Translations under genes and position numbers: made by a program | NCBI RefSeq assembly: GCF_054482595.1 | Contig: NZ_CM137008.1 | Direction: 5' to 3' (one strand) | DNA length: 64,000 nt | Part shown: positions 45,545 through 62,930 of the stretch, piece after piece | Layout of the letters: each line of letters opens with the position of its first letter | Position numbering within the stretch: the first letter of the stretch is position 1 | The notes under the pieces: model-generated | What the model was told of the DNA's origin: nothing | Databases searched by the model: none | What the model saw: only the letters and a program-made list of their open reading frames with translations

Positions 45545-48136
45545 ATGCATCAATCTGGTTCTGTTTCTCTTTGTCGTTCCGCAATATCTGTTCTGGTGGC
45601 TACAGCGTTATATTCACCCATAGCATTGGCATCAACAGTTGAGTATGGTGAGACAGTTGATGGTGTTGTCCTGGAAAAAGATATCCAGCTGGTTTATGGG
45701 ACCGCCAATAATACGAAAATCAATCCTGGCGGAGAACAGCATATTAAAGAATTTGGTATAAGTAGTAATACTGAAATTAACGGCGGGTATCAGTACATTG
45801 AAATGAATGGCACCGCAGAATACTCCGTATTAAATGATGGTTATCAAATTGTTCAAATGGGTGGCGCGGCAAACCAGACTACCCTCAATAATGGTGTGCT
45901 ACAGGTTTATGGCGCAGCGAATGATCCCACGATTAAAGGCGGGCGCTTAATCGTTGAAAAAGATGGGATTACCGTCCTTGCCGCTATCGAAAAGGGAGGA
46001 TTACTGGAGGTTAAAGAGGGGGGATTAGCGATTGCGGTAGATCAGAAAGCAGGCGGTGCTATTAAAGCAACCACGCGGGTCATGGAGGTATTCGGAACAA
46101 ACCGTCTCGGTCAGTTCGATATCAAGAATGGAATTGCAAACAATATGCTGTTGGAAAACGGCGGAAGTTTGCGAGTTGAAGAAAATGACTTCGCTTATAA
46201 TACTACTGTAGATAGTGGCGGCTTACTGGAGGTTATGGATGGCGGGACTGCAACTGGCGTTGATAAAAAAGCAGGCGGAAAATTAATTGTCTCAACGAAT
46301 GCGCTGGAAGTGAGTGGTACAAACAGTAAAGGCCAATTTAGTATAAAAGATGGTGTGTCAAAAAATTATGAACTGGATGATGGTTCCGGGCTTATTGTTA
46401 TGGAGGACACGCAGGCCATTGACACTATCCTTGATGAGCATGCCACTATGCAATCGCTGGGAAAGGATACTGGTACGAGAGTGCAGGCAAATGCGGTATA
46501 TGATCTCGGTCGATCAGATCAGAATGGAAGTATAACGTATTCCTCTAAAGCCATCTCTGAAAATATGGTTATCAACAATGGCCGCGCTAACGTCTGGGCT
46601 GGCACAATGGTTAACGTTTCAGTCAGAGGGAATGATGGCATTCTTGAGGTCATGAAGCCGCAAATAAATTATGCACCCGCAATGTTGGTGGGTAAGGTAG
46701 TGGTTTCTGAGGGCGCTTCTTTTAGAACGCATGGTGCCGTGGATACCAGCAAAGCGGACGTTTCGCTCGAAAATAGCGTATGGACCATCATTGCCGATAT
46801 CACTACGACGAACCAAAACACCCTCCTCAACTTAGCCAACCTTGCGATGTCTGACGCAAATGTGATTATGATGGATGAGCCAGTGACTCGTTCATCAGTG
46901 ACGGCAAGTGCGGAAAATTTCATTACGTTGACCACCAATACCCTGTCGGGAAACGGCAATTTTTATATGCGTACCGATATGGCTAATCATCAGAGCGATC
47001 AGCTCAACGTCACCGGTCAGGCAACAGGTGATTTCAAAATATTCGTGACGGACACCGGTGCCAGCCCGGCAGCAGGAGATAGCCTTACACTGGTAACAAC
47101 GGGCGGCGGTGATGCTGCATTTACGTTGGGCAATGCCGGAGGCGTTGTTGATATCGGTACGTATGAATATACCTTGCTGGATAATGGTAACCATAGCTGG
47201 AGTCTGGCAGAGAATCGCGCGCAAATTACCCCTTCAACCACTGATGTGCTGAATATGGCGGCCGCACAACCGCTGGTATTTGATGCAGAACTGGACACCG
47301 TGCGTGAGCGTCTTGGTAGCGTAAAAGGCGTTAGTTACGATACGGCGATGTGGAGTTCGGCAATTAACACCCGCAACAACGTGACCACTGATGCGGGAGC
47401 TGGTTTTGAGCAAACATTGACGGGCCTGACGCTCGGTATCGATAGCCGTTTCTCCCGTGAAGAAAGCAGCACAATTCGCGGCTTGTTCTTTGGTTACTCT
47501 CATTCTGATATTGGTTTTGATCGCGGCGGAAAAGGTAATATCGATAGCTATACCCTGGGGGCTTATGCCGGTTGGGAGCATCAGAACGGTGCCTATGTTG
47601 ATGGGGTGGTGAAAGTTGACCGTTTTGCCAACACCATCCATGGCAAGATGAGTAATGGGACAACAGCGTTTGGCGATTACAATAGTAACGGCGCGGGTGC
47701 TCATGTTGAGAGCGGGTTCCGTTGGGTTGACGGATTGTGGAGTGTTAGACCCTATCTGGCCTTTACCGGCTTTACCACAGATGGTCAGGACTACACGTTA
47801 TCAAACGGCATGCGCGCGGACGTGGGAAATACCCGGATATTACGCGCTGAAGCGGGAACGGCGGTAAGCTATCACATGGACCTGCAAAACGGTACGACGC
47901 TGGAACCCTGGCTGAAAGCCGCCGTACGTCAGGAATACGCCGATTCTAACCAGGTGAAAGTTAATGACGATGGCAAATTTAATAATGATGTGGCTGGAAC
48001 CCGTGGCGTTTATCAGGCTGGGATAAGGTCATCGTTTACCCCGACGTTAAGCGGTCATTTGTCAGTCAGCTATGGCAATGGCGCAGGGGTAGAATCGCCG
48101 TGGAATACTCAGGCGGGTGTGGTCTGGACGTTCTGA
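45545..48136 (+). CDS. yejO: Autotransporter YejO, apparently intact
   Basis: 863 aa, signal peptide, passenger repeats, C-terminal beta-barrel ending WTF. Confidence 0.9.
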   Translation: MHQSGSVSLCRSAISVLVATALYSPIALASTVEYGETVDGVVLEKDIQLVYGTANNTKINPGGEQHIKEFGISSNTEINGGYQYIEMNGTAEYSVLNDGYQIVQMGGAANQTTLNNGVLQVYGAANDPTIKGGRLIVEKDGITVLAAIEKGGLLEVKEGGLAIAVDQKAGGAIKATTRVMEVFGTNRLGQFDIKNGIANNMLLENGGSLRVEENDFAYNTTVDSGGLLEVMDGGTATGVDKKAGGKLIVSTNALEVSGTNSKGQFSIKDGVSKNYELDDGSGLIVMEDTQAIDTILDEHATMQSLGKDTGTRVQANAVYDLGRSDQNGSITYSSKAISENMVINNGRANVWAGTMVNVSVRGNDGILEVMKPQINYAPAMLVGKVVVSEGASFRTHGAVDTSKADVSLENSVWTIIADITTTNQNTLLNLANLAMSDANVIMMDEPVTRSSVTASAENFITLTTNTLSGNGNFYMRTDMANHQSDQLNVTGQATGDFKIFVTDTGASPAAGDSLTLVTTGGGDAAFTLGNAGGVVDIGTYEYTLLDNGNHSWSLAENRAQITPSTTDVLNMAAAQPLVFDAELDTVRERLGSVKGVSYDTAMWSSAINTRNNVTTDAGAGFEQTLTGLTLGIDSRFSREESSTIRGLFFGYSHSDIGFDRGGKGNIDSYTLGAYAGWEHQNGAYVDGVVKVDRFANTIHGKMSNGTTAFGDYNSNGAGAHVESGFRWVDGLWSVRPYLAFTGFTTDGQDYTLSNGMRADVGNTRILRAEAGTAVSYHMDLQNGTTLEPWLKAAVRQEYADSNQVKVNDDGKFNNDVAGTRGVYQAGIRSSFTPTLSGHLSVSYGNGAGVESPWNTQAGVVWTF

Positions 48137-48197
48137 TAACAGAAAATAAACAGGCTGTGATGTGTCACGGTCTGTTTATCGAATTAATTGCAGATAT

Positions 48198-48228
48198 AAA
48201 AAAACCAACCGTAAGGGTTGGTTTTTTT
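48198..48228. terminator. Bidirectional hairpin (A-run/CCAACC-GTAAG-GGTTGG/T-run) between yejO and the tRNA-derived core
   Basis: Inverted repeat flanked by A7 and T7 runs. Confidence 0.65.
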
Positions 48229-48236
48229 GGGATTTT

Positions 48237-48285
48237 TGGTCGGCACGAGAGGATTTGAACCTCCGACCCCCGACACCCCATGACG
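48237..48285 (-). other. Prophage attachment core: 3'-terminal ~49 nt of tRNA-Pro (proL-type), not a complete tRNA
   Basis: Minus strand reads CGTCATGGGGTGTCGGGGGTCGGAGGTTCAAATCCTCTCGTGCCGACCA (anticodon-stem to CCA end) but the expected 5' half (CGGCACG acceptor arm) is absent; sequence diverges into AT-rich phage DNA. Confidence 0.8.
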
Positions 48286-48654
48286 CCGCTTGAAAAATGC
48301 TGAGAACCGCGCAATCGCTGGTGGTAGGTACTATTCGCATGTATAAACAAACAGTGCTTTTTTAGCAAAATCCGTTCTATATACATCAATGACTTAGGTG
48401 GTGGTTTCTCCCCATGCCACAAGTAGTGTTGAGCTTTACTGAAGCCACTCCATTGGCCTCTACATGGAAACTAACAAGAAAATGTCAGTTGAAGGAGTTT
48501 TATAAATTCATGTTTTCTTCTTCAGGACAACCCATCACCCGCAGGCACCGCCTGCGGGAATTTTGCGACTGTGTTCGTTTTAAATTATAGATGCATCACC
48601 TGATATTCGTGACATACAAACTATGCATTAGCCAGATCTATACTGGATAAGTAT

Positions 48655-50406
48655 TCATTCTAATGCCTTCTCAATGTTTGTATTTATTTCTGATAAACTA
48701 TTAATTACACCGTCAAATACAAAATCAAGAGCGTTACTATAACCAATTGCTAAAGTAGCTGAATCAAATCCTAGTTTTGCTAAATGCTCAATTGATTTGT
48801 TTACTGCTTCATGAGCTTCAGCATTTCTTAAATCATTATTTATAAAAAACGATGCCACTTTTTTATTTTGAGTTTTAAAATCTGCAAATTCTGTGGCGTG
48901 CTTAAGTACAGATGAGTCTTCATTCTGTTCAATAATTGGCTCGATAAGGTTAAGTAATGATTGAAGTAGTTTCAGAGTTTGGAATTTTTCGATGTCTGAT
49001 TTATTAACACCCATTGCAATTAATAATTTTTTTAAAGAGCCTGATTTAATCTTATTTAAAATCTCATTAATAGTCTTACATCTATTCAAAAAATCCGGTT
49101 CTTGCATGTCATTTGGCGCAACAAATGCTAGCTTCTGCAATACTGGATAGTTAGAGATTCCTTCTGATTCTAACTCTGTGCGATTAATTTCTAAAATGTC
49201 TGCATTGGATAAAGTAACACCAATACTTCTACCAAGTGCTACAAGATTATCGCTAAGTCTTGCTAGTTCTCTAGCGAATTTAAATGTTTTAGATACAATA
49301 TGTTCTCCGCTTAAATCATTTTCAGTGATTTGGTTTGGATCCTTAGCATAATCAAAAACATGATAAACCTCCTCTTCAGGAATTCCTCGATACAGCTCAT
49401 AAAACGGAATTCTGACTAAGTTTCTTCCAACCCTGATGCAATCCCTAAAGGACCATTGTCCACCGTAGCTTGGAGCAACCCTATAAGAATAGCCGTCATA
49501 AAATGGAATAGCATCATATGAAGAATCTTTTTCATATTTAGTAAGGAAAGAGTCATTAACCAAGACATATTCATTGTTTCTGATGTCTTTGGCTCTTGAA
49601 CTCGTCATAGGAGTATCATATCCCGGCCATATTAATTCATCTATATTTAATTTTTTACAAAGTTCAGGCTGAACAGATTGTACACTTCCCCATGCTTGCA
49701 ATAATATATTGTCCCCATTATCTACTATCTCAAAATCTATCCAAGGCAAATCAAACTTGAAATGTTTTGACCCAGACAATAAGTTAATTACTTCCGTCGT
49801 TCTTTGAATACGTGCTTCATAGTAAAAAACACGTACACCAACATAATTTCTCATCCAGAGGTATTTTCTTAGATAATCATTACGCATTGTCCATTTTACA
49901 TCTTTATTACTTCTAAAGTAATACTCGCTTGACACATCCCCTTGTGCGACTCCATAATCGGGCAAGCTTACCTCATCGAAAATGACTTTTTGCTCAGTGT
50001 CACCTATAAGTCTGGGTTTTAGACCAAGCATCATCCATACATCTTCAGCTAAAAAAAATGAAAAGTGAGAACTATCACCCCAAGAAGCTACAATATACTT
50101 ATAACCTGAAATTGATAAACTATAATCTCTTGCTCCGCCTTTAGACCTACAGTCAGGAGTCGAAAATGAAACTAAACCATTAGTAGACTCCTGGAGAACT
50201 TTGATATTATTGATATCTTCTTGTGGTACGGTAGCCATTGTCATATGAGCACACTCATGATTATCTTTAAAAAGATTTTTTTCGTATCTATGTGTGACAA
50301 TGACCTCTTTCTGTGGATTAGTAATATCCTCTATAGATAATAAATCTTTAAGACCTTGAGGGATCTGATCTACTGGTAAAGGTAATTGTGATATATAGTC
50401 AATCAT
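48655..50406 (-). CDS. Hypothetical 583-aa cargo protein (no TM, no recognised NTPase motif), C-terminal Rx4H (HEPN-like) motif; candidate defence/abortive-infection gene
   Basis: Long clean ORF, visibly AT-rich, own ~320-bp AT-rich upstream region, located between att core and int. Confidence 0.7.
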   Translation of the reverse strand: MIDYISQLPLPVDQIPQGLKDLLSIEDITNPQKEVIVTHRYEKNLFKDNHECAHMTMATVPQEDINNIKVLQESTNGLVSFSTPDCRSKGGARDYSLSISGYKYIVASWGDSSHFSFFLAEDVWMMLGLKPRLIGDTEQKVIFDEVSLPDYGVAQGDVSSEYYFRSNKDVKWTMRNDYLRKYLWMRNYVGVRVFYYEARIQRTTEVINLLSGSKHFKFDLPWIDFEIVDNGDNILLQAWGSVQSVQPELCKKLNIDELIWPGYDTPMTSSRAKDIRNNEYVLVNDSFLTKYEKDSSYDAIPFYDGYSYRVAPSYGGQWSFRDCIRVGRNLVRIPFYELYRGIPEEEVYHVFDYAKDPNQITENDLSGEHIVSKTFKFARELARLSDNLVALGRSIGVTLSNADILEINRTELESEGISNYPVLQKLAFVAPNDMQEPDFLNRCKTINEILNKIKSGSLKKLLIAMGVNKSDIEKFQTLKLLQSLLNLIEPIIEQNEDSSVLKHATEFADFKTQNKKVASFFINNDLRNAEAHEAVNKSIEHLAKLGFDSATLAIGYSNALDFVFDGVINSLSEINTNIEKALE

Positions 50407-50728
50407 TATAATTTATGCCTTCTATGCTCAGTATTAAATTAAATATTAAATCGAAGTCATCCCCTTGGCAACCTAAATCGTTTGCTGCTAGTACTTCAGT
50501 GTAAGATTAATTATGCAATAGTTTGCAATTGAAATATCTTAAGCTGTAGAAAAATCAATCATACTGATACCTTTTACTTAAGTTTCACTCCTAGGCATGA
50601 TGAACGCTTCCTCAAGATACAGTATTACGCTATGCCTGCAACTTTCACTTGTGGCATAGTAAACCTTTCAATTTAGGTTTAGCCCTGTATAGTAGTAATG
50701 CACGCTTCAAATCTGAGCTAATAAAATT

Positions 50729-51913
50729 TTAACTGGCTTTAATTTCTCCATGTGGTACGACAACCCAATCAATATGGTTTTGCGTATAAATCTTGGTTGA
50801 CTTGGAGTCGCTGTGCGCCATTCGTGCTTGCGGATCGATACCTTGCTGATCGAAAAGATACGCTGCTAATGCTCTAATTTCGTGAAAGGTTGGTCTTTCA
50901 TCTATCGGTAGATTGTCGCATAAACCTAGCTTGTCACGTGTGGCTGAAAACGACCGGCTCAAATAGTCCGGTGCAACTTGAGTAGGGTGTGAAACCTCTT
51001 TGCTGCGTTTAACCTGCCGTTCAGGGATCCTGTGAACGACAAACGGACTGGCCACATTATCTCGGCTATCATCAATTATTCGTTTCAACTCTTCACCAAT
51101 CGGTATTGCAACGTGTGATGCCTCTTTTTTTTGCACTTTTTGCCTGTGGATGTAAAGCGTCCCATATATGCCATTTTGTGGTTGTTCGAACCAGACACAT
51201 CCACATATACCGTCTTTAGGTTCGCGAATTGAGTAACGGATTCGCGATACTTCGAGTCGTGCATGTGTAGTCTGCAATGCTAGGTCCATTGCTGTTCTTA
51301 ACCATGGTGCAGCGGCCTGCCTGATAGCTATAAAATGCTCGAGTGACAGGCGCCGTCTTTTCTTCTCATCAGTCCTACGCATTTTTTTTCTGATGGCCGG
51401 GTTATCCAGCATTAGTGATTCATCGACCGCATAAGAGAACAACTTTTTAAGGAAGCTGACCTTTCTGTTCTGCACATTTGCGGATGCGCAGGCATGATAT
51501 TTATTGATGTAGGTATTAACGTGTTCAAGTGCAATATCGCATGCTGGAACATTTACGAAAAACGCTTTTACGCGTAGAGCGTCATTTTTCCAGTCATCTA
51601 AGGTGCTCTGGGAAGGACGTTCGTCTTCGATAATCCGGGTCATTATGTGATCAACATGTTCAGCAAATGGTTTTGCTTCTCCGATAACACCGCCAGATTC
51701 TCTAATAAGATTATCTACTGATGGAGATAATTCTGGTCGCATCCTCAGGTTGTACTCTCTGGCGATTGCAATGGCTATTGCCCTATCCTTACCTATATTT
51801 TTCTTCTTTCCGGTAATAAGTGTGAATTTATAAACACCTCGATCTTTATCAAAAATCAGATAATCAGGAAGATGTCTGTATTCTTTTTTACGTGGCCTTG
51901 CCGCCATGGTCAC
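50729..51913 (-). CDS. int: Phage integrase, tyrosine recombinase
   Basis: 394 aa; C-terminal catalytic region with HEIRALAAYL (HxxR) and STKIYTQ (Tyr); overlaps xis. Confidence 0.92.
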   Translation of the reverse strand: MTMAARPRKKEYRHLPDYLIFDKDRGVYKFTLITGKKKNIGKDRAIAIAIAREYNLRMRPELSPSVDNLIRESGGVIGEAKPFAEHVDHIMTRIIEDERPSQSTLDDWKNDALRVKAFFVNVPACDIALEHVNTYINKYHACASANVQNRKVSFLKKLFSYAVDESLMLDNPAIRKKMRRTDEKKRRRLSLEHFIAIRQAAAPWLRTAMDLALQTTHARLEVSRIRYSIREPKDGICGCVWFEQPQNGIYGTLYIHRQKVQKKEASHVAIPIGEELKRIIDDSRDNVASPFVVHRIPERQVKRSKEVSHPTQVAPDYLSRSFSATRDKLGLCDNLPIDERPTFHEIRALAAYLFDQQGIDPQARMAHSDSKSTKIYTQNHIDWVVVPHGEIKAS

Positions 51914-52119
51914 CCCTCATTTATTAACTTGCGAACAGCTTGACTAACCATTGAGTCGACTCCCCATTTTTCTGTTTCGCAGACAAAAACAGAACCGTCC
52001 ACGATGCGTCCCATGAGTAGACCGTTCTCGACCCAACGTTTTATCGTTCGGTTGTCAGGAATTGAGCCATTAGAGAATTCACGGCGTCCCCATTGGCTCG
52101 CTTTCATTAGTTTTGCCAT
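51910..52119 (-). CDS. xis: Excisionase (Xis-like)
   Basis: Small ORF overlapping int start by 4 nt; ...RTIKRWVENG... winged-helix excisionase motif; start at MAKLMK chosen (ORF-track start 52164 possible). Confidence 0.75.
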   Translation of the reverse strand: MAKLMKASQWGRREFSNGSIPDNRTIKRWVENGLLMGRIVDGSVFVCETEKWGVDSMVSQAVRKLINEG

Positions 52120-52180
52120 GGCTGTTTCTCCACTTAGCCCGCTGCACACGGGTAGTAATATCAAATTCCAGTCCTGATAA

Positions 52181-52396
52181 TTAATTTTGTTCTCTGGTTG
52201 CTACTTGTTTTATTGGCCTGATGCTGTCCAGGAGCAGACGGCGGCGCATGTTTGGCGCGCCCCAACGGTAACCAGTCTTTTTGTCGTAGGATTCACAACG
52301 TCCGACAACCCAGGAGGTTTCAGTGGAATGTAATTTCATCCGCTTTTCACCGTCTCGGGTGATAACAATTCCTGTATGAGTTTTTATCACGCTCAT
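52181..52396 (-). CDS. Hypothetical small phage protein (71 aa)
   Basis: ORF upstream of xis with RBS GGAGAATAAAAAATG; function unknown. Confidence 0.55.
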   Translation of the reverse strand: MSVIKTHTGIVITRDGEKRMKLHSTETSWVVGRCESYDKKTGYRWGAPNMRRRLLLDSIRPIKQVATREQN

Positions 52397-52920
52397 TTTT
52401 TATTCTCCGGTGCTTTCGGCATTACTGCCCAGTGGGTAATATTGACGTTTTCAAGGTCCCCGACCTGAAATGTCCACTGCCATTCTCCGGTTTCTTTTTG
52501 CCCCCAATGTGTACCAGAGAGAACGCCAGCCAATCAGCCAGCCTTCTCCATTAGCATCAAATAACAGAACACTTTCATGTCTGTTTTGTAAAAAGGACGG
52601 TACCAGCCGGAAGCAAGGGTACAAGCTGGTACCTCCAAGACTACACACAGCATAAAGTTGTGGTGCCGGGTGCCTCCCGGTGCCTGGCGAAGGTTGCACA
52701 CCAGGCGGGTGGGTATCCACAGAAGGTCGACTGTCAGCCTCAACCTTTACCCGCGTGCGCTGAGCCGCATTCACCACAACGCTAAGGATTCTCTCTGGTT
52801 GAAAATACTTAGCTGTTATGTGCCTGCTTTTAGCCACATCAGGCGAGGTGGACCTAGTTATTCCCCAACAACAAGGATTTGGTTATTATGTAACCCTCCC
52901 CAACAACGATAAGGATTTAT

Positions 52921-53010
52921 ATGGAACGATGTGTAGATAAGTATGAGGAGAGGCATGTGCCGTTAAGGCAAAAGCCTCCAGTTCCTCCAAAACCACCCAA
53001 GGAAAACTGA
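52921..53010 (+). CDS. Putative 29-aa proline-rich leader peptide (MERCVDKYEERHVPLRQKPPVPPKPPKEN)
   Basis: AGGA RBS 5 nt upstream of ATG; stop 7 nt before the 164-aa ORF start; see findings. Confidence 0.35.
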   Translation: MERCVDKYEERHVPLRQKPPVPPKPPKEN

Positions 53011-53017
53011 GACTAAT

Positions 53018-53512
53018 ATGACCAGAGACGATTATAAATTTTATATTCACTACTCTTATGTATTGGAGAAGATGAATTACACGTTGTTAACTCGTATTGA
53101 TAAATTAATAACGTTGATGTTAATCGTTCTCGGTTTTTCAGTTTTCGCCCCGTACAGTAATTTATTTATTTTCGGTTTGTTTGTTGCCGTACTTTCGGTT
53201 CTTCAGTTGGTCTATCAGTTCGGCCAGGAGGCTGGGATGTCTAAAGAACAAGCGAGGCATTACAAAAGACTGCTGATTGAGTCTGATACTCTTTCTGAAG
53301 ATCAGTTGCAAGCTAGGTATTTAAAAATCCAAGATACCGATAGTAATCCATGGAAATCACTTGAACGAGCGGCTTTCATTCGGGCCTGCATTTTTGCTGG
53401 TGTTCCAACTAAGTACGATCTAACAACCAAAGAAAAATTTATTGCTTGGTGTGCGGGAGATCTACCTCTAGAGAATGAACTAACGGATATTAATGATGAC
53501 CAACAAGCATAA
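53018..53512 (+). CDS. Small membrane protein with two N-terminal TM helices; SieB-like position (superinfection exclusion candidate)
   Basis: 164 aa, AT-rich, hydrophobic segments LITLMLIVLGFSVFAPY and LFIFGLFVAVLSVLQLVY; sits between early-left region and cI on opposite strand. Confidence 0.65.
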   Translation: MTRDDYKFYIHYSYVLEKMNYTLLTRIDKLITLMLIVLGFSVFAPYSNLFIFGLFVAVLSVLQLVYQFGQEAGMSKEQARHYKRLLIESDTLSEDQLQARYLKIQDTDSNPWKSLERAAFIRACIFAGVPTKYDLTTKEKFIAWCAGDLPLENELTDINDDQQA

Positions 53513-53567
53513 TCCAGTTCACGGACATGTACCTCCGAAGCCGAAACCACCGAAACCGAAGAAATGA
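53496..53567 (+). CDS. Putative 23-aa proline-rich micro-ORF (MTNKHNPVHGHVPPKPKPPKPKK)
   Basis: ATG overlapping the 3' end of the 164-aa ORF; see findings. Confidence 0.3.
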   Translation: MTNKHNPVHGHVPPKPKPPKPKK

Positions 53568-53586
53568 GACATAATAGGATTGGATA

Positions 53587-53655
53587 ATGAGTCGACCAAT
53601 AGAGCCTTTTCATATTCCACCTCGTCCCAGGCCACCAGATCCAGGCCCAAAGTGA
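53587..53655 (+). CDS. Putative 22-aa proline-rich micro-ORF (MSRPIEPFHIPPRPRPPDPGPK)
   Basis: AGGA RBS 7 nt upstream; followed by terminator hairpin. Confidence 0.3.
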   Translation: MSRPIEPFHIPPRPRPPDPGPK

Positions 53656-53678
53656 GGGTTACTGATTTTTAAAGAGCG

Positions 53679-53703
53679 AAGCGTCCGGTAGGGCGCTTTT
53701 TTG
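53679..53703 (+). terminator. Rho-independent terminator closing the membrane-protein/micro-ORF unit
   Basis: AAGCGTCC-GGTA-GGGCGCTT hairpin (one G-U pair) followed by TTTTTT. Confidence 0.6.
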
Positions 53704-53817
53704 TTGCTAACGAATCATCTTGGACTTCATATGCCCCAGGCGGCTACTTCGTGAGCGTCCTGCCTGTTTGTTGTTTCTCTTGGGTACATTATGTATCTCA
53801 AAGGTACATTGTCAAGC

Positions 53818-53842
53818 ATAAAAAAACCTGCCGAAGCAGGTT
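53818..53842 (-). terminator. Rho-independent terminator downstream of cI
   Basis: Minus strand AACCTGC-TTCG-GCAGGTT followed by U-run. Confidence 0.65.
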
Positions 53843-53854
53843 CATAAACATTGA

Positions 53855-54529
53855 TTAGGCTTTGATTTTGTATCTTCTTGGTTTTCCTGAGAAAATCACA
53901 GTACCAATTATAGAGCAATTACCGTTGATCTTAATGTAAGGCTCAGGCCAGTTTGGGTTTAACGCTTTGAGATAACGCTGTGTCCCATCTTCTATCAACC
54001 TTTTGAAGGTGGTTTCACCTGTATCGTGCATCAATGCAATAACGTCGTCACCGTGGCAGGCAGGTACTTCAGGATCGACAAAAATCATGTCTCCCGGGCG
54101 GTACTCATCAATCATTGAATCACCTATCACCCGCAAGATATAAGTCATTTCCCCACAGGGTACAGGGCAGGGATACGTTTCTGCTGTGCTCAAATCAACC
54201 TCAGAATATCCAACTTCTTTCCATGCTCCGGCCTGTACCCATGATATGACAGGGACTAATGTGATTTGTTTATTAGTGATTGAAACATCAGGTTTTTTTG
54301 TGATGTTCGTTGTCTGGTGTTCTTGATCGAGCCATCCGACAGGCAGGTCGAAACATTTTTCGATGTGTCGTGCCATGCTGTCACCGATATTTTTAGTAGC
54401 ACCATCTCCCATAAACCTGCTGGTTTGGGTTGGCTCGCGATCAATCATAGTGGCAAAGGAAGAATTCCCGCCAACACCATCTCTCAGTTTTCTGGCGTTA
54501 GACCGCCGGATGTCATGGATTGTTTTCAT
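53855..54529 (-). CDS. Phage repressor CI-like (HTH plus S24 LexA-type autopeptidase domain)
   Basis: 224 aa; C-terminal ...VIGDSMIDEYRPGDMIFVDPE... S24 Ser/Lys peptidase signature; divergent from cro-like gene. Confidence 0.88.
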   Translation of the reverse strand: MKTIHDIRRSNARKLRDGVGGNSSFATMIDREPTQTSRFMGDGATKNIGDSMARHIEKCFDLPVGWLDQEHQTTNITKKPDVSITNKQITLVPVISWVQAGAWKEVGYSEVDLSTAETYPCPVPCGEMTYILRVIGDSMIDEYRPGDMIFVDPEVPACHGDDVIALMHDTGETTFKRLIEDGTQRYLKALNPNWPEPYIKINGNCSIIGTVIFSGKPRRYKIKA

Positions 54530-54544
54530 AACGAAATTAAAACC

Positions 54545-54565
54545 CTTGTACCGTTAAGGTACAAG
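54545..54565. promoter_or_regulatory. Operator-like perfect palindrome CTTGTACC-GTTAA-GGTACAAG in cI/cro intergenic
   Basis: Read directly; GGTAC(A) half-sites recur near 54607, 53776, 53800 and 52617. Confidence 0.6.
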
Positions 54566-54569
54566 TATC

Positions 54570-54597
54570 TTGAAGGTTCATTTTAATCATGTAATAT
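54570..54597 (+). promoter_or_regulatory. Candidate pR-like sigma70 promoter (TTGAAG-N16-TAATAT) for cro-like gene
   Basis: -35/-10 hexamers adjacent to operator palindrome, GGAGG RBS downstream. Confidence 0.5.
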
Positions 54598-54619
54598 GTA
54601 TACCGGAGGTACATATTGT

Positions 54620-54820
54620 ATGAAAGCGTATTGGGACTCTTTAACCAAAGAACAGCAGGGCGAGTTGGCCGGAAAAGTTGGCTCAACACCTGGCTACTTA
54701 CGGCTGGTTTTCAATGGCTATAAAAAAGCCAGTTTTGTGCTGGCTAAAAAACTTGAGCAATGCACGTCAGGTGCAATTACGAAATCTGACTTAAGACCGG
54801 ATATCTATCCGAAAGATTAG
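54620..54820 (+). CDS. Cro/YdaS-like small HTH regulator
   Basis: 66 aa from MKAYWDSL; position and size; ORF-track start 54596 lies upstream of predicted -10. Confidence 0.75.
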   Translation: MKAYWDSLTKEQQGELAGKVGSTPGYLRLVFNGYKKASFVLAKKLEQCTSGAITKSDLRPDIYPKD

Positions 54821-54851
54821 CAGAACACTTTCAATTTTTAACCACAGAACG

Positions 54852-55415
54852 ATGAGGCTAATCGTGGGTAAGCATCACTGGAAAATAGAAAAACAGCCTG
54901 AGTGGTACATGAAAGCTGTCAGAAAAACTATCGCGGCGTTGCCGGGTGGTTACGCTGAAGCCGCTGACTGGCTGGATGTAACAGAGAACGCATTATTTAA
55001 CCGCCTTCGTGCCGATGGCGATCAGATTTTCCCGCTGGGATGGGCAATGATTTTGCAACGTGCTGGTGGAACTCACTTCATTGCTGATGCTGTGGCGCAG
55101 TCTGCAAATGGCGTCTTTGTGTCTCTTCCTGACGTCGAGGATGTGGACAACGCCGATATTAACCAGCGTCTGCTGGAAGTCATTGAACAGATTGGCAGTT
55201 ATTCAAAACAGATTCGTTCAGCAATCGAAGACGGTGTAGTGGAACCGCATGAGAAGACAGCAATTAATGACGAGCTGTACCTCTCAATTTCGAAGCTGCA
55301 GGAGCATGCAGCACTGGTCTACAAAATTTTTTGCATTTCAGAAAGTAATGACGCCCGCGAGTGTGCAGCTCCGGGCGCCGTGGCGTGTCGTGACTGTGGA
55401 GAAACTAACGCATGA
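54852..55415 (+). CDS. Hypothetical early protein in CII/YdaT position (possibly CP76-type CII-like regulator)
   Basis: 187 aa ORF directly after cro-like gene; family assignment tentative. Confidence 0.6.
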
Positions 55416-55750
55416 ACAGTTTAACAACACATTACCGTCGCTCGCAACTGATTGCACTTCCTGTACCGGGTGGAAAAGCGAAGGTGGAGTATTGCTATGC
55501 AGTGAATGTACCAGGTGACAGGGAAATTGTAACCCACAGCTTTGCAGAGTGGGCTGTGGGCGATTTCAACCGGCAAAAGGAGACAGTCCTTTGCGACAAG
55601 TTAACCGCTGGTTCAAAGATCACTACGGAGTGCCCGTCAGAGTCATTCGTTGGGAGCCGGAAACACAACGGGTTATCTACCTCCGCGAAGGCTATGAGCA
55701 TGAGTGCTTCAGCCCGCTCGAACAGTTTCGTCGTAAATTCAGGGAAATAG
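55412..55750 (+). CDS. Hypothetical protein; overlaps alternative frame 55549..55770 (possible frameshift or overlapping genes)
   Basis: ATGA-coupled to upstream gene; second frame is ATGA-coupled to downstream replication gene. Confidence 0.4.
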
Positions 55751-55759
55751 AGGTCGGTC

Positions 55760-56701
55760 ATGAGCACTAAATTAACCGGCTATGTATGGGATGGTTGCGC
55801 TGCGTCAGGCATGAAGTTATCCAGCGTGGCAATTATGGCCCGCCTGGCTGATTTCAGTAATGACGAAGGTGTGTGCTGGCCATCAATTGAAACCATTGCC
55901 CGCCAGATTGGCGCGGGGATGAGCACCGTCAGAACGGCTATCGCACGGCTGGAAGCAGAAGGCTGGTTAACTCGTAAGGCGCGTCGCCAGGGTAACCGCA
56001 ATGCGTCGAATGTTTATCAGCTTAACGTTGCGAAGCTTCAGGCAGCGGCATTTTCTCAACTGTCAGATTCTGACCCGTCAAAATCTGACGCATCAAAATC
56101 TGACCCGTCAAAATTTGATGCGTCGAAATCTGGCAAAAAAGCGGGTTTTCACCCGTCAGAATCTGGCGGGGATCCGTCAGTAAAATCAAAACATGATCCG
56201 TCAGATAAAAAAAACTCTCGTCCGGACGCTTCGCAACCGGACACGCAGATGGATGAACAGGATTTTTTAACTCGCCATCCTGATGCGGTTGTATTCAGCC
56301 CTAAAAAGCGCCAGTGGGGGACGCAGGATGATTTGACCTGCGCACAGTGGCTCTGGAAAAAAATCATCGCCCTGTACGAGCAGGCTGCCGAATGTGACGG
56401 CGAGGTGGTTCGTCCCAAAGAACCGAACTGGACAGCCTGGGCAAACGAAATTCGCCTGATGTGTGTGCAGGATGGTCGTACTCACAAACAAATCTGCGAG
56501 ATGTACAGCCGCGTCAGCCGCGATCCGTTCTGGTGCCGTAACGTGCTCAGCCCGTCGAAGCTGCGGGAAAAATGGGATGAGCTTTCCCTGCGCTTATCGC
56601 CGTCCGTAAGCACGTACACCGAAAAACGCGAAGACCCGTACTTCAAATCCAGTTACGACAACGTGGACTACAGCCAGATCCCGGCAGGATTCAGGGGGTG
56701 A
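55760..56701 (+). CDS. Phage replication initiator (O-like, N-terminal winged-helix DNA-binding domain) containing iteron array
   Basis: 313 aa; N-terminal HTH-like region; internal SDSDPSKSDASKSDPSKFDASKSG repeats encoded by DNA direct repeats. Confidence 0.7.
   Translation: MSTKLTGYVWDGCAASGMKLSSVAIMARLADFSNDEGVCWPSIETIARQIGAGMSTVRTAIARLEAEGWLTRKARRQGNRNASNVYQLNVAKLQAAAFSQLSDSDPSKSDASKSDPSKFDASKSGKKAGFHPSESGGDPSVKSKHDPSDKKNSRPDASQPDTQMDEQDFLTRHPDAVVFSPKKRQWGTQDDLTCAQWLWKKIIALYEQAAECDGEVVRPKEPNWTAWANEIRLMCVQDGRTHKQICEMYSRVSRDPFWCRNVLSPSKLREKWDELSLRLSPSVSTYTEKREDPYFKSSYDNVDYSQIPAGFRG
56062..56215. repeat. Iteron-like direct repeats (~15-nt CGTCA(A/G)AATCTGAC units, about 8 copies): candidate phage replication origin
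   Basis: Tandem near-identical units read directly inside replication gene, as in lambda O/ori. Confidence 0.6.
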
Positions 56702-57192
56702 TCATGAGTCTTTTGAATGACGTTCAGAAATTCATTGAAGCCCATCCGGGGTGTACTTCCGGAGACATTGCGGATGCTTTTGCTGGTTACTCACGGCAGC
56801 GCGTTCTGCAGTCAGCAAGCAAGTTACGTCAGAGTGGGCGTGTGGCTCACCGTTGTGAAGGGGATACACGCAGACATTTCCCGCGCCTGACTGAGAGAGC
56901 GCAGGAACTGGAACCACAACCAGTTCGAGAAACCAGATCTGTGCGCAATTTCTATGTCGGCACTAACGATCCCCGGGTGATTTTGTGCCTGACCCGCCAG
57001 GCTGAAAAACTGGAGTCCAGGGGCTTATACCGTCGTGCTGCAACGGTGTGGATGGCGGCATTCCGTGAAAGCCACTCCCAGCCAGAACGAAACAATTTTC
57101 TGGCGCGTCGTGAGCAGTGTTTACGGAAAAGCAGCAAGCGCGCTGTATCGAGTGATGAGTGGTATCTGTCAGGGAATTACGTGGGGGCGTAA
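56698..57192 (+). CDS. Hypothetical phage protein (tentative PerC/ANR-like C-terminal motif)
   Basis: 164 aa ORF coupled to neighbours; motif LESRGLYRRAATVWMAAF; no Walker motif so not a DnaC-type loader. Confidence 0.55.
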   Translation: MIMSLLNDVQKFIEAHPGCTSGDIADAFAGYSRQRVLQSASKLRQSGRVAHRCEGDTRRHFPRLTERAQELEPQPVRETRSVRNFYVGTNDPRVILCLTRQAEKLESRGLYRRAATVWMAAFRESHSQPERNNFLARREQCLRKSSKRAVSSDEWYLSGNYVGA

Positions 57193-57518
57193 TGACGACG
57201 TTAACTCAATGCCAGCAGCAGGTGCTGGATATGCTGATTTCTTATCAGAAAGAGCGTGGCTTTCCGCCAACCAATCAGGAGGTGGCAACCATGCTGGGAT
57301 ACCGTTCAGTGAATGCAGCGGTAGAGCATCTTCGCGCACTGGAGAAAAAAGGCGTCATCACGATAAAGCGTGGCGTGGCCCGGGGGATAACGCTTCATAC
57401 CGCGGTGAAGGACGACGACAGCGAGGCGGTCGGGATTATCCGCGCACTGCTTGCCGGTGAGGAAAACGCAAGGCTGCGTGCAACCCACTGGTTACATGAG
57501 AGGGGCCTGAAAGTATGA
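57192..57518 (+). CDS. LexA N-terminal DNA-binding domain protein (no peptidase domain)
   Basis: QQQVLDMLISYQKERGFPPTNQEVATMLGYRSVNAAVEHLRALEKKGVI parallels LexA N-terminal winged helix (QQEVFDLI...GMPPTRAEIA...[21 protein letters not shown]). Confidence 0.75.
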   Translation: MTTLTQCQQQVLDMLISYQKERGFPPTNQEVATMLGYRSVNAAVEHLRALEKKGVITIKRGVARGITLHTAVKDDDSEAVGIIRALLAGEENARLRATHWLHERGLKV

Positions 57519-57904
57519 AGCTGATCCTGCCTTTTCCGCCCAGCGTGAACACGTACTGGCGACACCCCAACAAAGGGGCGTTTGCTGGTAAGAGCCTGAT
57601 AAGCGCGGCGGGGCGAAAATTCCAGAGCGCGGCGTGTGCAGCAATAGTTGAGCAGTTACGTCGTCTGCCGAAACCAACGTCGGCACCTGCTTCAGTGGAG
57701 ATCGTGTTGTTTCCTCCGGATAACCGGATCCGCGATCTGGACAACTATAACAAGGCGCTGTTTGACGCCCTGACCCACGCGGGTGTGTGGGAAGACGACA
57801 GCCAGGTGAAAAGAATGTTGGTGGAGTGGGGACCGGTTATCCCGGAAGGGAAGGTCGAGATCACTATCAGTAAGTACGAGAAAACGGCGGGTGCAGCCGC
57901 CTGA
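57515..57904 (+). CDS. rusA: Holliday junction resolvase RusA
   Basis: 129 aa; LPFPPSVNTYWRH...DLDNYNKALFDALT motif typical of RusA. Confidence 0.88.
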   Translation: MKLILPFPPSVNTYWRHPNKGAFAGKSLISAAGRKFQSAACAAIVEQLRRLPKPTSAPASVEIVLFPPDNRIRDLDNYNKALFDALTHAGVWEDDSQVKRMLVEWGPVIPEGKVEITISKYEKTAGAAA

Positions 57905-57923
57905 TCAAGAGGAGAAACGAAGT

Positions 57924-58721
57924 ATGAATAATCTGATGGTCATTGATGGTATTGAAGTTCGTCGTGATGCTTATGGGCGTTACAGCCTGAACGATCTGCA
58001 CAGGGCTGCCGGTTCTCTGGATAAGCATAAGCCTGCATTCTGGCTCCGCAATGAGCAAACTGAACGTTTAATAAGCGAGTTGCAGATTTGCAACTCGGTC
58101 AATATAGAGCCAGTTAACGTTATTCGCGGCGGAAATAATCAGGGGACGTATGTCTGTAAGGAACTGGTGTATGCCTATGCAATGTGGATCAGCCCGTCAT
58201 TCCATCTGAAGGTGATCCGTACTTTCGACATGGTAACCAGCGCACCGGAAAAATTATCCGGACAGGCTGCTGACAAGATGCAGGCTGGAGTGATTCTGCT
58301 GGACTTTATGCGTCGGGAGTTAAACCTGTCTAACTCATCTGTGCTTGGGGCCTGTCAAAAACTCCAGGAGGCTGTTGGCTTACCGAATCTGGCACCGCGC
58401 TATGCCATTGATGCTCCTGCTGATGCACACGATGGCTCAAGTCGCCCCACGCTGTCGCTGAGTGCACTGCTGAAGCAGTATGGTATCCGCCTGACGGCTA
58501 ATCAGGCATATCACCAGATGGTGAAGCTGGGGATCGTTGAACAACGCGAACGATACAGCCGTACCGCGATTAACAACATCAAAAAATTCTGGTCGCTGAC
58601 AGCGAAAGGCTGCATGTTCGGCAAGAACATCACCAGTCCCGCAAATCCGCGCGAGACGCAGCCGCATTTCTTCGAATCCCGATTCCCTGAGCTGTTAAAG
58701 CTGCTCGATACCGTTCATTGA
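57924..58721 (+). CDS. KilA-N domain protein (antirepressor-like)
   Basis: MNNLMVIDGIEVRRDAYGRYSLNDLHRAAG...KPAFWLRNEQT N-terminal KilA-N signature. Confidence 0.75.
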   Translation: MNNLMVIDGIEVRRDAYGRYSLNDLHRAAGSLDKHKPAFWLRNEQTERLISELQICNSVNIEPVNVIRGGNNQGTYVCKELVYAYAMWISPSFHLKVIRTFDMVTSAPEKLSGQAADKMQAGVILLDFMRRELNLSNSSVLGACQKLQEAVGLPNLAPRYAIDAPADAHDGSSRPTLSLSALLKQYGIRLTANQAYHQMVKLGIVEQRERYSRTAINNIKKFWSLTAKGCMFGKNITSPANPRETQPHFFESRFPELLKLLDTVH

Positions 58722-58722
58722 G

Positions 58723-59718
58723 GTGACCGTGAGAGCACTACTGACCCCTGAAATTGCCCCGCGTATGGGGATCGTATTGTTCAGACCAGGTTCAGAACTG
58801 ATGCCCCTGTTTATGCAGGGGCGTGTCCTGCTGGAGCCTGAGCCGGAACGTTATTCATCTTTCGCCAGTGGTGCCGTTCCGGCAGCATCACAACCGCTGG
58901 CGGATGATCCTGCCGTTCGGGCCGTGTTCCGCAATGAGGCAGTGATCCGTCGTGCTGGTGGCGTGGAATGTCTTGAAAGCTGGTTACTTCGTGAAAAAGG
59001 CTGTCAGTGGCCTCACTCCGACTGGCACAGCGAAAACATGACCACAACGCGCCATGCGCCGGGCGCAATCCGTCTGTGCTGGCACTGCGATAACCAGTTG
59101 CGTGACCAGTTCACGGAACGGCTGGAATCAATGGCAACGGATAACTGTGCCCGCTGGGTGTTATCTGTTGTGCGCCGTGATCTCGGTTTTGATGATAGTC
59201 ACGTTGTGACAATGCCGGAACTGTGCTGGTGGCTGGTTCGTAATGACCTGGCGGATGCCTTACCGGAAAGTGCAGCCCGTAAGGCACTGAGATTACCGAA
59301 GCCTGTTGTGCCGTCTGTCACCCGGGAAAGTGACCTTGTTCCTTCGGTTCCTGCCACCAGCATCATCCAGGATAAGGCGAAAAAGGTGCTGGCGCTGAAA
59401 GTGGATCCGGAGTCACCGGAGTCTTTTATGTTACGCCCAAAACGTCGCCGCTGGGTTAATGAAAAGTACACGCGCTGGGTTAAGACACAGCCGTGTGCAT
59501 GTTGTGGAAAGCCCGCTGATGATCCCCACCACCTGATAGGCCATGGTCAGGGTGGAATGGGGACAAAAGCGCATGACCTCTTTGTGTTGCCTTTGTGCAG
59601 AAAGCATCACGACGAGCTGCATGCGGATACCGTGGCATTTGAAGAGATGTATGGCTCCCAGCTGGAGCTGATATTTCGTTTTATCGATCGTGCGCTGGCA
59701 ATTGGTGTGCTGGCCTGA
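58723..59718 (+). CDS. DUF968-family phage protein (YdfU-like)
   Basis: 331 aa; C-terminal Cys/His-rich CACCGKPADDPHHLIGHGQGGMGTKAHDLFVLPLCRKHHDELH. Confidence 0.7.
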   Translation: MTVRALLTPEIAPRMGIVLFRPGSELMPLFMQGRVLLEPEPERYSSFASGAVPAASQPLADDPAVRAVFRNEAVIRRAGGVECLESWLLREKGCQWPHSDWHSENMTTTRHAPGAIRLCWHCDNQLRDQFTERLESMATDNCARWVLSVVRRDLGFDDSHVVTMPELCWWLVRNDLADALPESAARKALRLPKPVVPSVTRESDLVPSVPATSIIQDKAKKVLALKVDPESPESFMLRPKRRRWVNEKYTRWVKTQPCACCGKPADDPHHLIGHGQGGMGTKAHDLFVLPLCRKHHDELHADTVAFEEMYGSQLELIFRFIDRALAIGVLA

Positions 59719-59720
59719 TT

Positions 59721-60083
59721 TTGTGGAGAAAGTTGATGCGTGATATGTATGAAGTAATGGATCGTTGGGGAGCTTGGGCTGCTTCAGACAATAGCGGAGT
59801 GGACTGGCAACCGGTAGCCGCTGGCTTCAAGGGACTTTTACCTCATGGCAAAAAGTCCCGGATTCAGTGTGATGATGACGAAGGCATTATGATAGACAGT
59901 TGTGTGGCTCGGTTGCGTAAATATAGGCCTGAAGAATATGAGCTAATCATTGCTCACTTTGTTATCGGTATCTCATTACGCACTATTGCGAAGAAGAGAA
60001 AATGCTCTGATGGGACTATAAGAAAAAAGTTGCAAGCTGCATTGGGATTTATTGATGCAGTTATATATATAATACATGGGTAA
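59721..60083 (+). CDS. Late-gene antiterminator Q (QuuD-type)
   Basis: 120 aa; DRWGAWAA...AAGFKGLL...KSR.QCDDD...CSDG... closely parallels QuuD-family Q proteins. Confidence 0.85.
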   Translation: MWRKLMRDMYEVMDRWGAWAASDNSGVDWQPVAAGFKGLLPHGKKSRIQCDDDEGIMIDSCVARLRKYRPEEYELIIAHFVIGISLRTIAKKRKCSDGTIRKKLQAALGFIDAVIYIIHG

Positions 60084-60090
60084 TTTATTA

Positions 60091-60109
60091 GACGGCCATA
60101 TTGGCCGTC
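60091..60109. terminator. Palindromic hairpin GACGGCC-ATATT-GGCCGTC between convergent Q and the antisense cassette
   Basis: Perfect 7-bp inverted repeat overlapping the cassette stop codon; no strong U-run. Confidence 0.4.
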
Positions 60110-61295
60110 AGCTAAATAAATATGTAATAGCATAAGGTGTAAGTAAAAAGTAGAATCTAAATGTAAGATATAAGCCACATAAAACTATAATTCCTAATGA
60201 GGCAAAAACAACTTTCTGAACAAGCAATCTTGTGGTTAAACTATCAAATGTATCCTTTATATCTTCGTAAATAGCCTTGAAGTTATATTCTGCTTGTTGT
60301 TTTTTATGATTTAACTCATCATTTATTGCTGTTAAAGTTTGCCATTGATTAAATAGAACAAATATAATCATAATAGTGAAGAACAATGCACCCAACACTA
60401 CAGCTGTGTTTATTAATGCTTGACTATCCCAACCATTAGCCTGCTTCATTTGAGTCGCAACGATAATTGTTGCGACGGGGATACCTAATATCTGATTTTG
60501 TATGTCACTGAATACTTTATGTATTTTCCCCATCTCTTCTATTTTGGCTACTCGTAACTGATCTAGTATTTTCTCGTAAGAAAAACCAGAAACGAATACT
60601 TTGTATCCTTTTTGATAACTTTCATAAAGTTGTCCTAAATCCCTTAACATGAAGGAAAAAGAGGTTTCTTTAGTTTTAGATTCACATGATGATTTTATAC
60701 TACTTGCTAAAATAGTAAGTTTTTGATCTTTATGCGTATCTTCTGCAAAGTTTGCGATCAAATTATGAATCAGATCTCCATTAACATTCATAAGATCATC
60801 GCTAGAATAATTTACTGGAATTTTTAGTACGTTGGATTCGACGAATACCAATTCAAAATTTGTTTCATCTAAATAAGCAGAACAATCTTTGAATAAAGTA
60901 ATTAAGCTCAAAACATCTCTGTACTTGGATATAATAGCAGGCGACTTTTTATCCCTGTTGTGATAATTAAGTTCGATTATAAAGAAGTTACTGGCTTCCT
61001 TTATCCTATTTTTAGGATTTTTTAAATACTCATTAAAAGAGAAATGTAGCTGCCCCAATCGTAATTTGGGGGGGGTTATATGTAAGGTTATAGTTTGGCC
61101 TAACTCAATGTTGCCAGATTCAAGGGTGATGCCAAAATCATGGGGATTCTCTGTGATATCGTTGATGATGTCACAGAGCTCCTCGTTTGAAAGAATGAGT
61201 GATGCTTCAGATAGGGTACCTGCAAATGTAGCGGCCTTGTAAATAGTCACTAAGTCTTTGAAGGTTCTCTGGTTTTTACTGCTCATCCTCTTCAC
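60108..61295 (-). CDS. Hypothetical 395-aa protein with two C-terminal TM helices; downstream gene of antisense two-gene moron
   Basis: Clean AT-rich ORF; hydrophobic segments ALINTAVVLGALFFTIMIIFVLF and VVFASLGIIVLCGLYLTFRFYFLL; overlaps upstream gene by 20 nt. Confidence 0.75.
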   Translation of the reverse strand: MKRMSSKNQRTFKDLVTIYKAATFAGTLSEASLILSNEELCDIINDITENPHDFGITLESGNIELGQTITLHITPPKLRLGQLHFSFNEYLKNPKNRIKEASNFFIIELNYHNRDKKSPAIISKYRDVLSLITLFKDCSAYLDETNFELVFVESNVLKIPVNYSSDDLMNVNGDLIHNLIANFAEDTHKDQKLTILASSIKSSCESKTKETSFSFMLRDLGQLYESYQKGYKVFVSGFSYEKILDQLRVAKIEEMGKIHKVFSDIQNQILGIPVATIIVATQMKQANGWDSQALINTAVVLGALFFTIMIIFVLFNQWQTLTAINDELNHKKQQAEYNFKAIYEDIKDTFDSLTTRLLVQKVVFASLGIIVLCGLYLTFRFYFLLTPYAITYLFS

Positions 61296-62310: not shown

Positions 62311-62426
62311 AACAACATCCTTTTAATGGTTTTGAACAATTGGTGTTGATAATACTTCAAAAAATACTAATGCGTACGCAAAAAATACAGTACTCTGTTA
62401 AGAGTGGTTACTTCGCCACACAGCTT

Positions 62427-62456
62427 AAACCCGCCGTTGAGCGGGTTTTGTCGTTT
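62427..62456 (+). terminator. tR'-like Rho-independent terminator upstream of lysis genes
   Basis: AACCCGC-CGTTGA-GCGGGTT hairpin followed by TTGTCGTTT. Confidence 0.6.
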
Positions 62457-62927: not shown

Positions 62928-62930
62928 TTT

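Follow-up and report, generated by a model that had tools for sequence, protein, structure and literature searches.

The temperate phages SfV, SfII and SfIV, together with PhiR29_1, share a left arm of common gene order in which N, Red and Kil genes are lacking and conversion cargo is placed between attP, the attachment site of the phage, and int. On the SfV map, the tail-fibre genes are followed by gtrV, gtrB, gtrA, int, xis, orf28, orf29, a homologue of yfdR (deoxynucleoside monophosphate phosphatase), a homologue of yfdQ, orf32, orf33 and cI, with gtrA, gtrB and gtrV placed on the attP side of int, between it and the tail-fibre genes. In SfV-like arms as a group, the order is int, xis, small open reading frames (ORFs), yfdR, sometimes yfdQ and yfdP, an STnc100-like RNA, a moron and cI. 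Here we describe a prophage of this kind in a 64,000-nucleotide (nt) stretch of DNA from contig NZ_CM137008.1 (assembly GCF_054482595.1), which is called the window hereafter. The chromosomal part of the window is that of E. coli (nap, ccm, narP and yejO), and the prophage extends from 48286 to beyond 64000. The region from its left end to cI very likely represents the int-proximal junction of an SfV/SfII/SfIV-type temperate prophage of approximately 41 kb in the tRNA gene proL, with an early-left arm made short by a deletion of 908 base pairs (bp) and with a cargo gene that probably encodes an anti-phage RNase.

Other described systems bear on the integration end of the element. In Eeyore, a free Escherichia phage from river water, 49 nt identical to proL lie approximately 140 bp downstream of int and are followed by a hairpin terminator; this identity is made up of 46 nt of the tRNA and 3 nt downstream of it, and the attP of a free phage with a tRNA-like core beside int is thereby known. 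Lambda and HK022 have an integrase (Int) of the lambda family with an arm-binding domain, and their int and xis end a leftward operon that starts at a repressor-controlled promoter beside cI. The insertion site itself has been reported as a phage integration site in Shigella flexneri serotype 1c, where the remnant of a gtrIC prophage is found at the tRNA-Pro gene between yejM and yejO (PMC4924310). That remnant is heavily decayed by insertion sequences and has a CP4-57-type integrase beside the intact tRNA.

Comparison of nucleotide sequences placed the element in the SfV group. From 52405 rightward, the window was 94-97% identical to PhiR29_1, SfIV, SfII and SfV (50-59% of 51900..64000 covered), and this identity spanned the immunity, replication and Q regions. 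The early, immunity and replication genes and the order of the left arm were thus SfV-like, and the core of the SfV arm was shared by seven E. coli prophage relatives. Two sister copies extended the comparison: 50EVA was 99.94% identical over 48229..59000 and 100% identical over 58277..64000, and LP50-1 was 99% identical over 48000..52578. In both of them, genes for an HK97-type head and for a Mu-type contractile tail and baseplate (sheath, tube and baseplate) were found in the part of the prophage that lies beyond the end of the window. On the other hand, no gtrA, gtrB or type-specific gtr gene was present between attP and int, where a predicted HEPN protein of 583 amino acids (aa) is encoded in place of gtrABV, and the homologues of yfdR, yfdQ and yfdP are missing.

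The integration module differs from that of the SfV group as well. With SfV, SfII and SfIV, matching sequence starts only at query position 506 (52405 of the window), and the nucleotide search gave no counterpart in SfV-type phages for the segment to the left. This pattern indicates a mosaic boundary near 52405, and the attachment (att) arm, the cargo, int, the excisionase candidate and the adjoining 71-aa ORF form a swapped integration module that is unrelated to that of SfV and is directed to proL instead of the SfV site. The right coordinate of an earlier note on this DNA, 52400, coincides with the boundary. The integrase gene (50729..51907, minus strand) encodes a lambda-Int-type tyrosine recombinase with an arm-binding domain, as judged from matches to PF09003 (26.7 bits; cut-off 22) and phrog_1 (E 1e-29), whereas the score with PF00589 was 21.2, under the cut-off of 27.1. 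The protein aligned lengthwise with HK022 Int, with HxxR and H conserved and R and Y within one column, and both the R, HxxR, H and Y residues of a tyrosine recombinase and the N-terminal arm-binding domain are therefore accounted for. No SfV-type phage was among the best 20 integrase matches listed for the phage collection, and the protein search found Eeyore and Flotzy (PP925821, PP925827), Eeyore Int being 77% identical. At the nucleotide level, int gave only short matches in sequenced phages, at the end of the 71-aa ORF.

Directly upstream of int, a 69-aa gene (51910..52119, minus strand) is a candidate excisionase (Xis) according to its position and one weak match (phrog_629, E 0.0046). 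The same protein, WP_001096409, was present in all examined E. coli relatives but one, in which a different accession occupied the same position. The last gene of the module is the 71-aa ORF (orf71; 52181..52396, minus strand), which matched phrog_1226 with E 3e-34, a family of unknown function. Matches to WD40 proteins in the PDB were dismissed as repeat artefacts.

In comparison with Eeyore, the attP of which shows proL identity and a terminator in the same orientation, the identity here is 49 + 8 nt instead of 46 + 3 nt. Furthermore, Eeyore has no cargo between int and attP, and its left arm of 5.2 kb includes exonuclease, queuine tRNA-ribosyltransferase and DksA-like genes. The differences from lambda and HK022 are as follows: instead of being short and intergenic, the core spans 57 bp within a tRNA gene; homologues of N, exo, bet, gam, kil and cIII are missing; the repressor is of the S24 YmfK type; and the Xis candidate had no similarity to HK022 Xis.

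The insertion site was determined by comparison with the empty site of K-12, where the order is yejM (lapC), proL and yejO. In the window, the autotransporter gene yejO corresponds to the ORF 45545..48136, and 48237..48285 (minus strand) agrees exactly with the final 49 nt of proL, tRNA-Pro(GGG), according to the annotated genes of K-12 and LP50-1. This fragment begins with the 5′ strand of the anticodon stem and ends with CCA; the window contains a single copy of it, and 100 shuffles gave none. Downstream of proL, K-12 has AAAATCCC, a hairpin terminator and the yejO stop codon, and this arrangement matches the left flank in the window, where the terminator scan placed the native hairpin between yejO and proL at 48197..48229. 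The left flank is therefore native chromosome, because it is identical to K-12 DNA downstream of proL. The earlier note had stated that only the part of tRNA-Pro from the anticodon stem to CCA is present here and had suggested a comparison with empty sites; the exact 49-nt identity agrees with the former, and K-12, with its intact proL between yejM and yejO and the same left flank, supplied the latter.

The far end of the prophage was seen in the sister copies. In both 50EVA and LP50-1, the prophage closes at an intact tRNA-Pro gene (proL) adjoining yejM, as found by ARAGORN or annotation, at a distance of 40.9 kb in 50EVA and approximately 42 kb in LP50-1. The two junctions in each of these genomes share 57 bp. 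The att core of the int-proximal junction is therefore 48229..48285 (minus strand), an exact direct repeat with the intact proL junction of LP50-1 and 50EVA, and it consists of the 3′ 49 nt of proL (48237..48285) and the 8 nt downstream of CCA (48229..48236); the match of 50EVA to the window likewise begins at 48229. Thus, the earlier proposal of the tRNA part as attachment core was right as to its location in the 3′ part of proL, and its length has to be changed from 49 nt to 57 bp. The core repeat at both ends and the restored tRNA, as expected of integration into the 3′ end of a tRNA gene, are both present in 50EVA and LP50-1. At the far junction, phage DNA with its own terminator hairpin follows the rebuilt tRNA, and therefore the phage replaces the 3′ part of proL together with its terminator. 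A search of the window for the 49-nt core gave no second copy; that an intact tRNA lies at the far end, as the earlier note presumed, was thus seen in these near-identical relatives and not in the window itself, and a second att copy is to be expected for this element by analogy with them.

On the phage side of the core, approximately 130 bp (48286..48415) were 84-90% conserved in 39 E. coli genomes, and the DNA beyond was not conserved. A homologue of this segment lies between int and the tRNA-like core in Eeyore. Because of its conservation in the 39 genomes and in Eeyore, the segment is the phage arm of attP, and it is likely to hold the arm-binding and accessory sites of Int. The integrase family was found in 108 of the 5,426 complete E. 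coli genomes, once in each and always on the chromosome. Unlike the remnant in S. flexneri 1c, the integrase gene here is at the yejO end, next to the displaced tRNA fragment.

A different element at the same site was observed in 50EVA (NZ_CP138412.1), where a 19-kb mobilisable island (L007 14780..33960) with integrases, a relaxase and an ABC-three-component system lies in tandem between yejO and the prophage. The repeat of this island is only the last 19 nt of proL (TGGTCGGCACGAGAGGATT); therefore, two unrelated elements share proL with cores of differing length.

The arm between int and the repressor gene holds the Xis candidate, the 71-aa ORF, a remnant of phrog_583, a structured region and a 164-aa ORF on the opposite strand. 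Its right limit is cI (53855..54529, minus strand), encoding a YmfK/LexA-like repressor with an S24 peptidase (PF00717, E 1.5e-26; phrog_4). No ORF from 51913 to 53855 matched N, Exo, Bet, Gam, Kil or cIII in Pfam, PHROGs or NCBIfam, and a lambda-type early-left arm, with N, Red and kil/cIII between xis and cI, is not what is found here. In this point the profiles bear out the earlier note, which had recognised none of N, exo/bet/gam and kil between int/xis and cI; however, a reading of their absence as a sign of decay is contradicted by viable SfV and the seven E. coli relatives, which have the same layout and in which no gene is annotated as N, Red or Kil. Since viable SfIV, SfII and SfV are also without these genes, their absence does not indicate a defect.

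The shortness of the arm has a different origin. The stretch 52397..52578 (minus strand) is a pseudogene remnant, as seen by tblastn and by alignment with LP50-1: it is the C-terminal part of the 120-aa SfV orf29/phrog_583 product, frameshifted by a 1-nt insertion and cut by a deletion. RefSeq annotates two partial pseudogenes over the same stretch of 50EVA. In the blastn alignment with LP50-1 (L001), position 52578 corresponds to 25080 and 52580 to 25989, and the deletion junction (52578..52580) thus marks the loss of 908 bp. With them went the 5′ portion of the orf29-like gene, the complete yfdR and the spacer as far as the RNA element, and the neighbours of yfdR were truncated. Here int and cI are 1.9 kb apart; the corresponding distances are 2.9-4.1 kb in six E. 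coli prophage relatives, 5.2 kb in Eeyore and 3.9 kb in SfV, and the arm in the window is the shortest of the nine compared. The arm, compact throughout this family, was thus shortened further by a recent deletion. The earlier description of the element as compacted is in line with the deletion; its list of the arm contents (71-aa ORF, structured region and membrane gene) was correct as far as it went, and two pseudogene remnants and the deletion junction had been overlooked.

The leftward genes may be expressed from a strong PL-like early-left promoter candidate, TTGACA-16-CATAAT, which the promoter scan found at 53783..53815 (minus strand; 11 of 12 matches), just downstream of the cI terminator. 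An operator-like palindrome, GGTACATTATGTATC, overlaps it, and a related palindrome is located beside cro at 54608; 0.13 chance matches are expected in the window. The promoter is conserved in LP50-1. The course of integration can be read from the two junctions. The attP carries the 3′ 49 nt of proL along with the next 8 nt, and also a terminator hairpin of its own, and the lambda-type Int recombines this 57-bp core with the 3′ end of proL. Because attP brings both the 3′ part of the tRNA and a terminator, proL is made whole again, terminator included, at the far junction; the native 3′ fragment is displaced to the yejO side, and on the yejM side proL is rebuilt from phage sequence. Integration through the 57-bp core with displacement of the native fragment is, at the level of sequence, demonstrated by the junctions. 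For excision, we infer from the paradigms of lambda and SfV that self-cleavage of the S24 repressor in the SOS response would open the PL-like promoter, that leftward transcription would reach orf71, xis and int, and that Int and Xis would then excise the element.

The cargo lies between the att arm and int, inside the region treated by the earlier note, which did not discuss it. It is a module of 2.3 kb with a low G+C content of 33-34% (48416..50728, minus strand), with an ORF of 583 aa at 48655..50406 and a promoter-like site at 50471..50443. The gene was present in two of the 5,426 E. coli genomes and in none of the sequenced phages, and the content of this slot was the same in the window, 50EVA and LP50-1. 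The protein belongs to a compact family of proteins of approximately 585 aa, all unnamed. A word-indexed search gave 333 homologues, and an exhaustive search of 1.84 billion proteins gave 428 cluster representatives at 50% identity, nearly all of them full-length. The hosts are scattered in Enterobacterales, Vibrio, Shewanella, Pseudomonas and Paracoccus. Homologues occurred as single genes: as cargo of an integrative and conjugative element (ICE), at the terminus of a P4-like satellite, on a Shewanella island alongside genes for RT-SLATT, HNH and methyltransferase proteins, and, as an opposite-strand moron, between the tail and head genes of a Paracoccus prophage. The gene is both rare and mobile, and it was acquired horizontally.

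The predicted function comes from a motif, from a structure model and from genomic context. All 41 diverse homologues keep R527 and H532, which lie in NNDLRNAEAHE (with its variants, NNDLR[N/I]A[E/D]AHE), and this corresponds to the Rx4H form of the Rx4-6H motif of HEPN RNases. The AlphaFold model (predicted local distance difference test score, pLDDT, 87.6) consists of a beta-rich N-domain (residues ~1-355) and an all-helical C-terminal domain, and the N-terminal domain resembled only SeAvs3, an anti-phage pattern-recognition protein. Prophages carry single-protein HEPN abortive-infection systems such as HepS (PMC13043305), and sensor domains of Avs proteins are reused with other effectors, including HEPN (bioRxiv 10.64898/2026.01.04.697583). 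The present gene shares with those for HepS of Gifsy-1 and Tha of S. aureus phages that it stands alone in an accessory position of a lambdoid prophage and encodes a canonical Rx4H motif. In contrast to HepS, which is described as a single HEPN domain (PMC13043305), it encodes 583 aa with a 355-aa Avs3-like N-domain, and no sequence-profile link to the curated HEPN families was found. From the motif, the fold hints and the context, we tentatively regard the product as a sensor-plus-HEPN abortive-infection protein, a reading for which the case is at best evenly balanced. Its most likely role would be that of an RNase of abortive infection or exclusion, with the N-domain serving as sensor or regulator and the C-terminal HEPN-type domain as effector. 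Somewhat more speculatively, it may found a single-protein anti-phage system that has so far gone undescribed, in which the SeAvs3-like domain would sense a phage component and activate the HEPN-type RNase.

The slot in which the gene resides was variable. In proL-integrating relatives, the att-int slot held a different gene set in nearly every strain, and each of seven relatives had its own gene there; examples are a 289-aa protein, a pair of 66 and 283 aa, a DUF2971 protein, a DUF4760 protein and a 239-aa protein. In Eeyore, the slot was empty. The slot between cI and the early-left genes was also variable, and the slot between Q and the holin gene held a remote DS1-like pair. The view that the variable slots of the element are filled with cargo is therefore well founded, since the att-int, cI/early-left and Q-holin slots all differ among relatives or hold cargo.

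Several points weigh against the interpretation given above. The assignment of Xis depends on position and a single weak match, and the window ends at 64000, short of the second att copy that the relatives lead one to expect. Excision could be impaired because the stretch from the PL-like promoter to xis/int contains the 908-bp deletion, and the 50EVA copy has an IS3 insertion as well as tail-fibre and invertase pseudogenes. As for the cargo, neither the protein nor its 41 homologues matched a curated HEPN or defence profile in Pfam, and the protein had no match in PADLOC, NCBIfam, PHROGs or the PDB sequences.

Two alternatives were considered, both of which we regard as unlikely to a similar degree. 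According to the first, the element is a cryptic, excision-defective prophage, in which deletion and decay have uncoupled xis and int from PL or removed a needed function, leaving it fixed in the chromosome. The frameshift that accompanies the deletion and the truncation of the invertase gene in 50EVA are consistent with this, and the arm seems to depend on PL, because an undeleted relative likewise gave no promoter-like site downstream of this element's RNA counterpart; the scan of LP50-1 also gave no promoter in the 908 bp lost from the window. However, int, the xis candidate, cI, cro, cII, the replication genes, Q and the lysis genes are all intact ORFs in the window, and the deleted yfdR and orf29-like genes are accessory, yfdR being frameshifted in other relatives. 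Moreover, orf71, xis and int are downstream of the deletion in the same orientation, and read-through from PL is therefore still possible.

According to the second alternative, the 583-aa cargo is not directed against phages and would instead act as a toxin or in an addiction module, contribute to virulence or fitness, or counter plasmids or ICEs. The lack of matches to the defence models of PADLOC, NCBIfam and Pfam and the presence of the family on an ICE as well as on phages are in favor of such functions. However, the gene always occurred singly in spots typical of defence genes (the att-int slot, the end of a P4-like satellite, and the island with RT-SLATT, HNH and methyltransferase genes), its Rx4H motif is typical of abortive-infection RNases, and the only resemblance of its N-domain is to an anti-phage pattern-recognition protein. 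The sensor-plus-HEPN reading remains the one we prefer.

Finally, the idea that 48237..48313 is a complete tRNA-Pro and the fragment a reading error, for which a 78-nt tRNA-Pro annotated by RefSeq over the equivalent junction of one relative, CFIAFB20180540 (L005 3739..3816), could be cited, is hardly tenable, since proL identity ends exactly at 48285, the following 28 nt (48286..48313) are phage DNA that can neither pair with the 3′ strand of the acceptor nor make acceptor and D arms with the fragment, ARAGORN found no tRNA gene in the whole window or in CFIAFB20180540, and Rfam gave no tRNA match at the junction. Re-inspection of the kind that the earlier note had named as decisive for its view of a partial tRNA thus left that view standing, and the RefSeq annotation, an att fragment plus adjacent phage DNA without support from ARAGORN or Rfam, was judged spurious.

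The structured region of the arm is a probable small RNA (sRNA) gene at 52587..52810 (minus strand, 224 nt). It matched Rfam RF02076 (STnc100) over the full model (1-206) with 39.9 bits and E 3e-6, a score that does not reach the gathering score of 47, and its fold had a z-score of -4.25 against shuffles. The same element was found in three relatives with 39.6-44.6 bits (L004 8068..8291, L005 9161..9383 and L018 7765..7988). In the relatives, RefSeq labels it as 'frameshifted hypothetical protein', which is probably a mis-called coding sequence over the sRNA gene. STnc100 and PasD have been described as related sRNAs borne by prophages (bioRxiv 10.64898/2026.05.13.724894), and the element in the window is a probable divergent member of this group. 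A put-like cis-antiterminator replacing N was considered for this region and dropped, in view of the full-length match to the trans-acting sRNA family STnc100, including the 3′ hairpin.

The 164-aa ORF (53018..53512, plus strand) is transcribed against the early-left operon and has its own terminator at 53678..53699. Hydropathy predicts a two-helix membrane hairpin, and the protein matched phrog_6315 (E 9e-64), a family of unknown function. The slot is occupied by a 159-aa protein in LP50-1 and by an ECs1072-family protein in LH09-a, and the ORF is a moron in a variable slot that may serve in exclusion or abortive infection.

Further genes were observed in or near the variable slots. Between the Q antiterminator and holin genes, two overlapping ORFs of 395 and 344 aa (60108..62310, minus strand) gave remote NCBIfam matches to DS1_2 and DS1_1 (70 and 56 bits, respectively, against cut-offs of >300). 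The 344-aa ORF also matched the nucleoid-associated protein YejK, and LP50-1 has a different gene in this slot; the pair may be a divergent two-gene defence cargo. At the boundary of the att arm and the cargo, a 58-aa ORF (48414..48590, plus strand) ends at a GC-rich hairpin and T-run (~48541..48570). In the att-int region of a further proL-associated element, that of EC554 (L017), a clear match to the sRNA isrN was found at 3396..3522 beside a DUF4760 gene (61.7 bits; gathering score 44). In the sister prophage of 50EVA (L006), in the part past the end of the window, iss, encoding a serum-survival lipoprotein, after the lysis genes, and a DUF262 gene beside IS3 near the proL end (5621..5914 and 26705..28513) indicate further cargo slots.

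The att site and the short arm are ordinary: they represent textbook integration into a tRNA gene at a site known from Shigella and the modular layout of SfV-like phages, and no new biology is needed to explain them. Two points are of some practical value. Swapping of the integration module retargets SfV-like phages that are otherwise nearly identical from one tRNA gene to a different one. In almost every strain of this proL-integrating group, the att-int slot holds another gene, and it is therefore a cheap place to seek new genes of lysogenic conversion or defence. The 583-aa family, unnamed in every library searched, is a concrete candidate for such tests and the sole part of the locus with potential for discovery; if it does found a new anti-phage system, the att-int slot of proL-integrating SfV-like prophages would be a defence hotspot comparable to those of P2 and P4.

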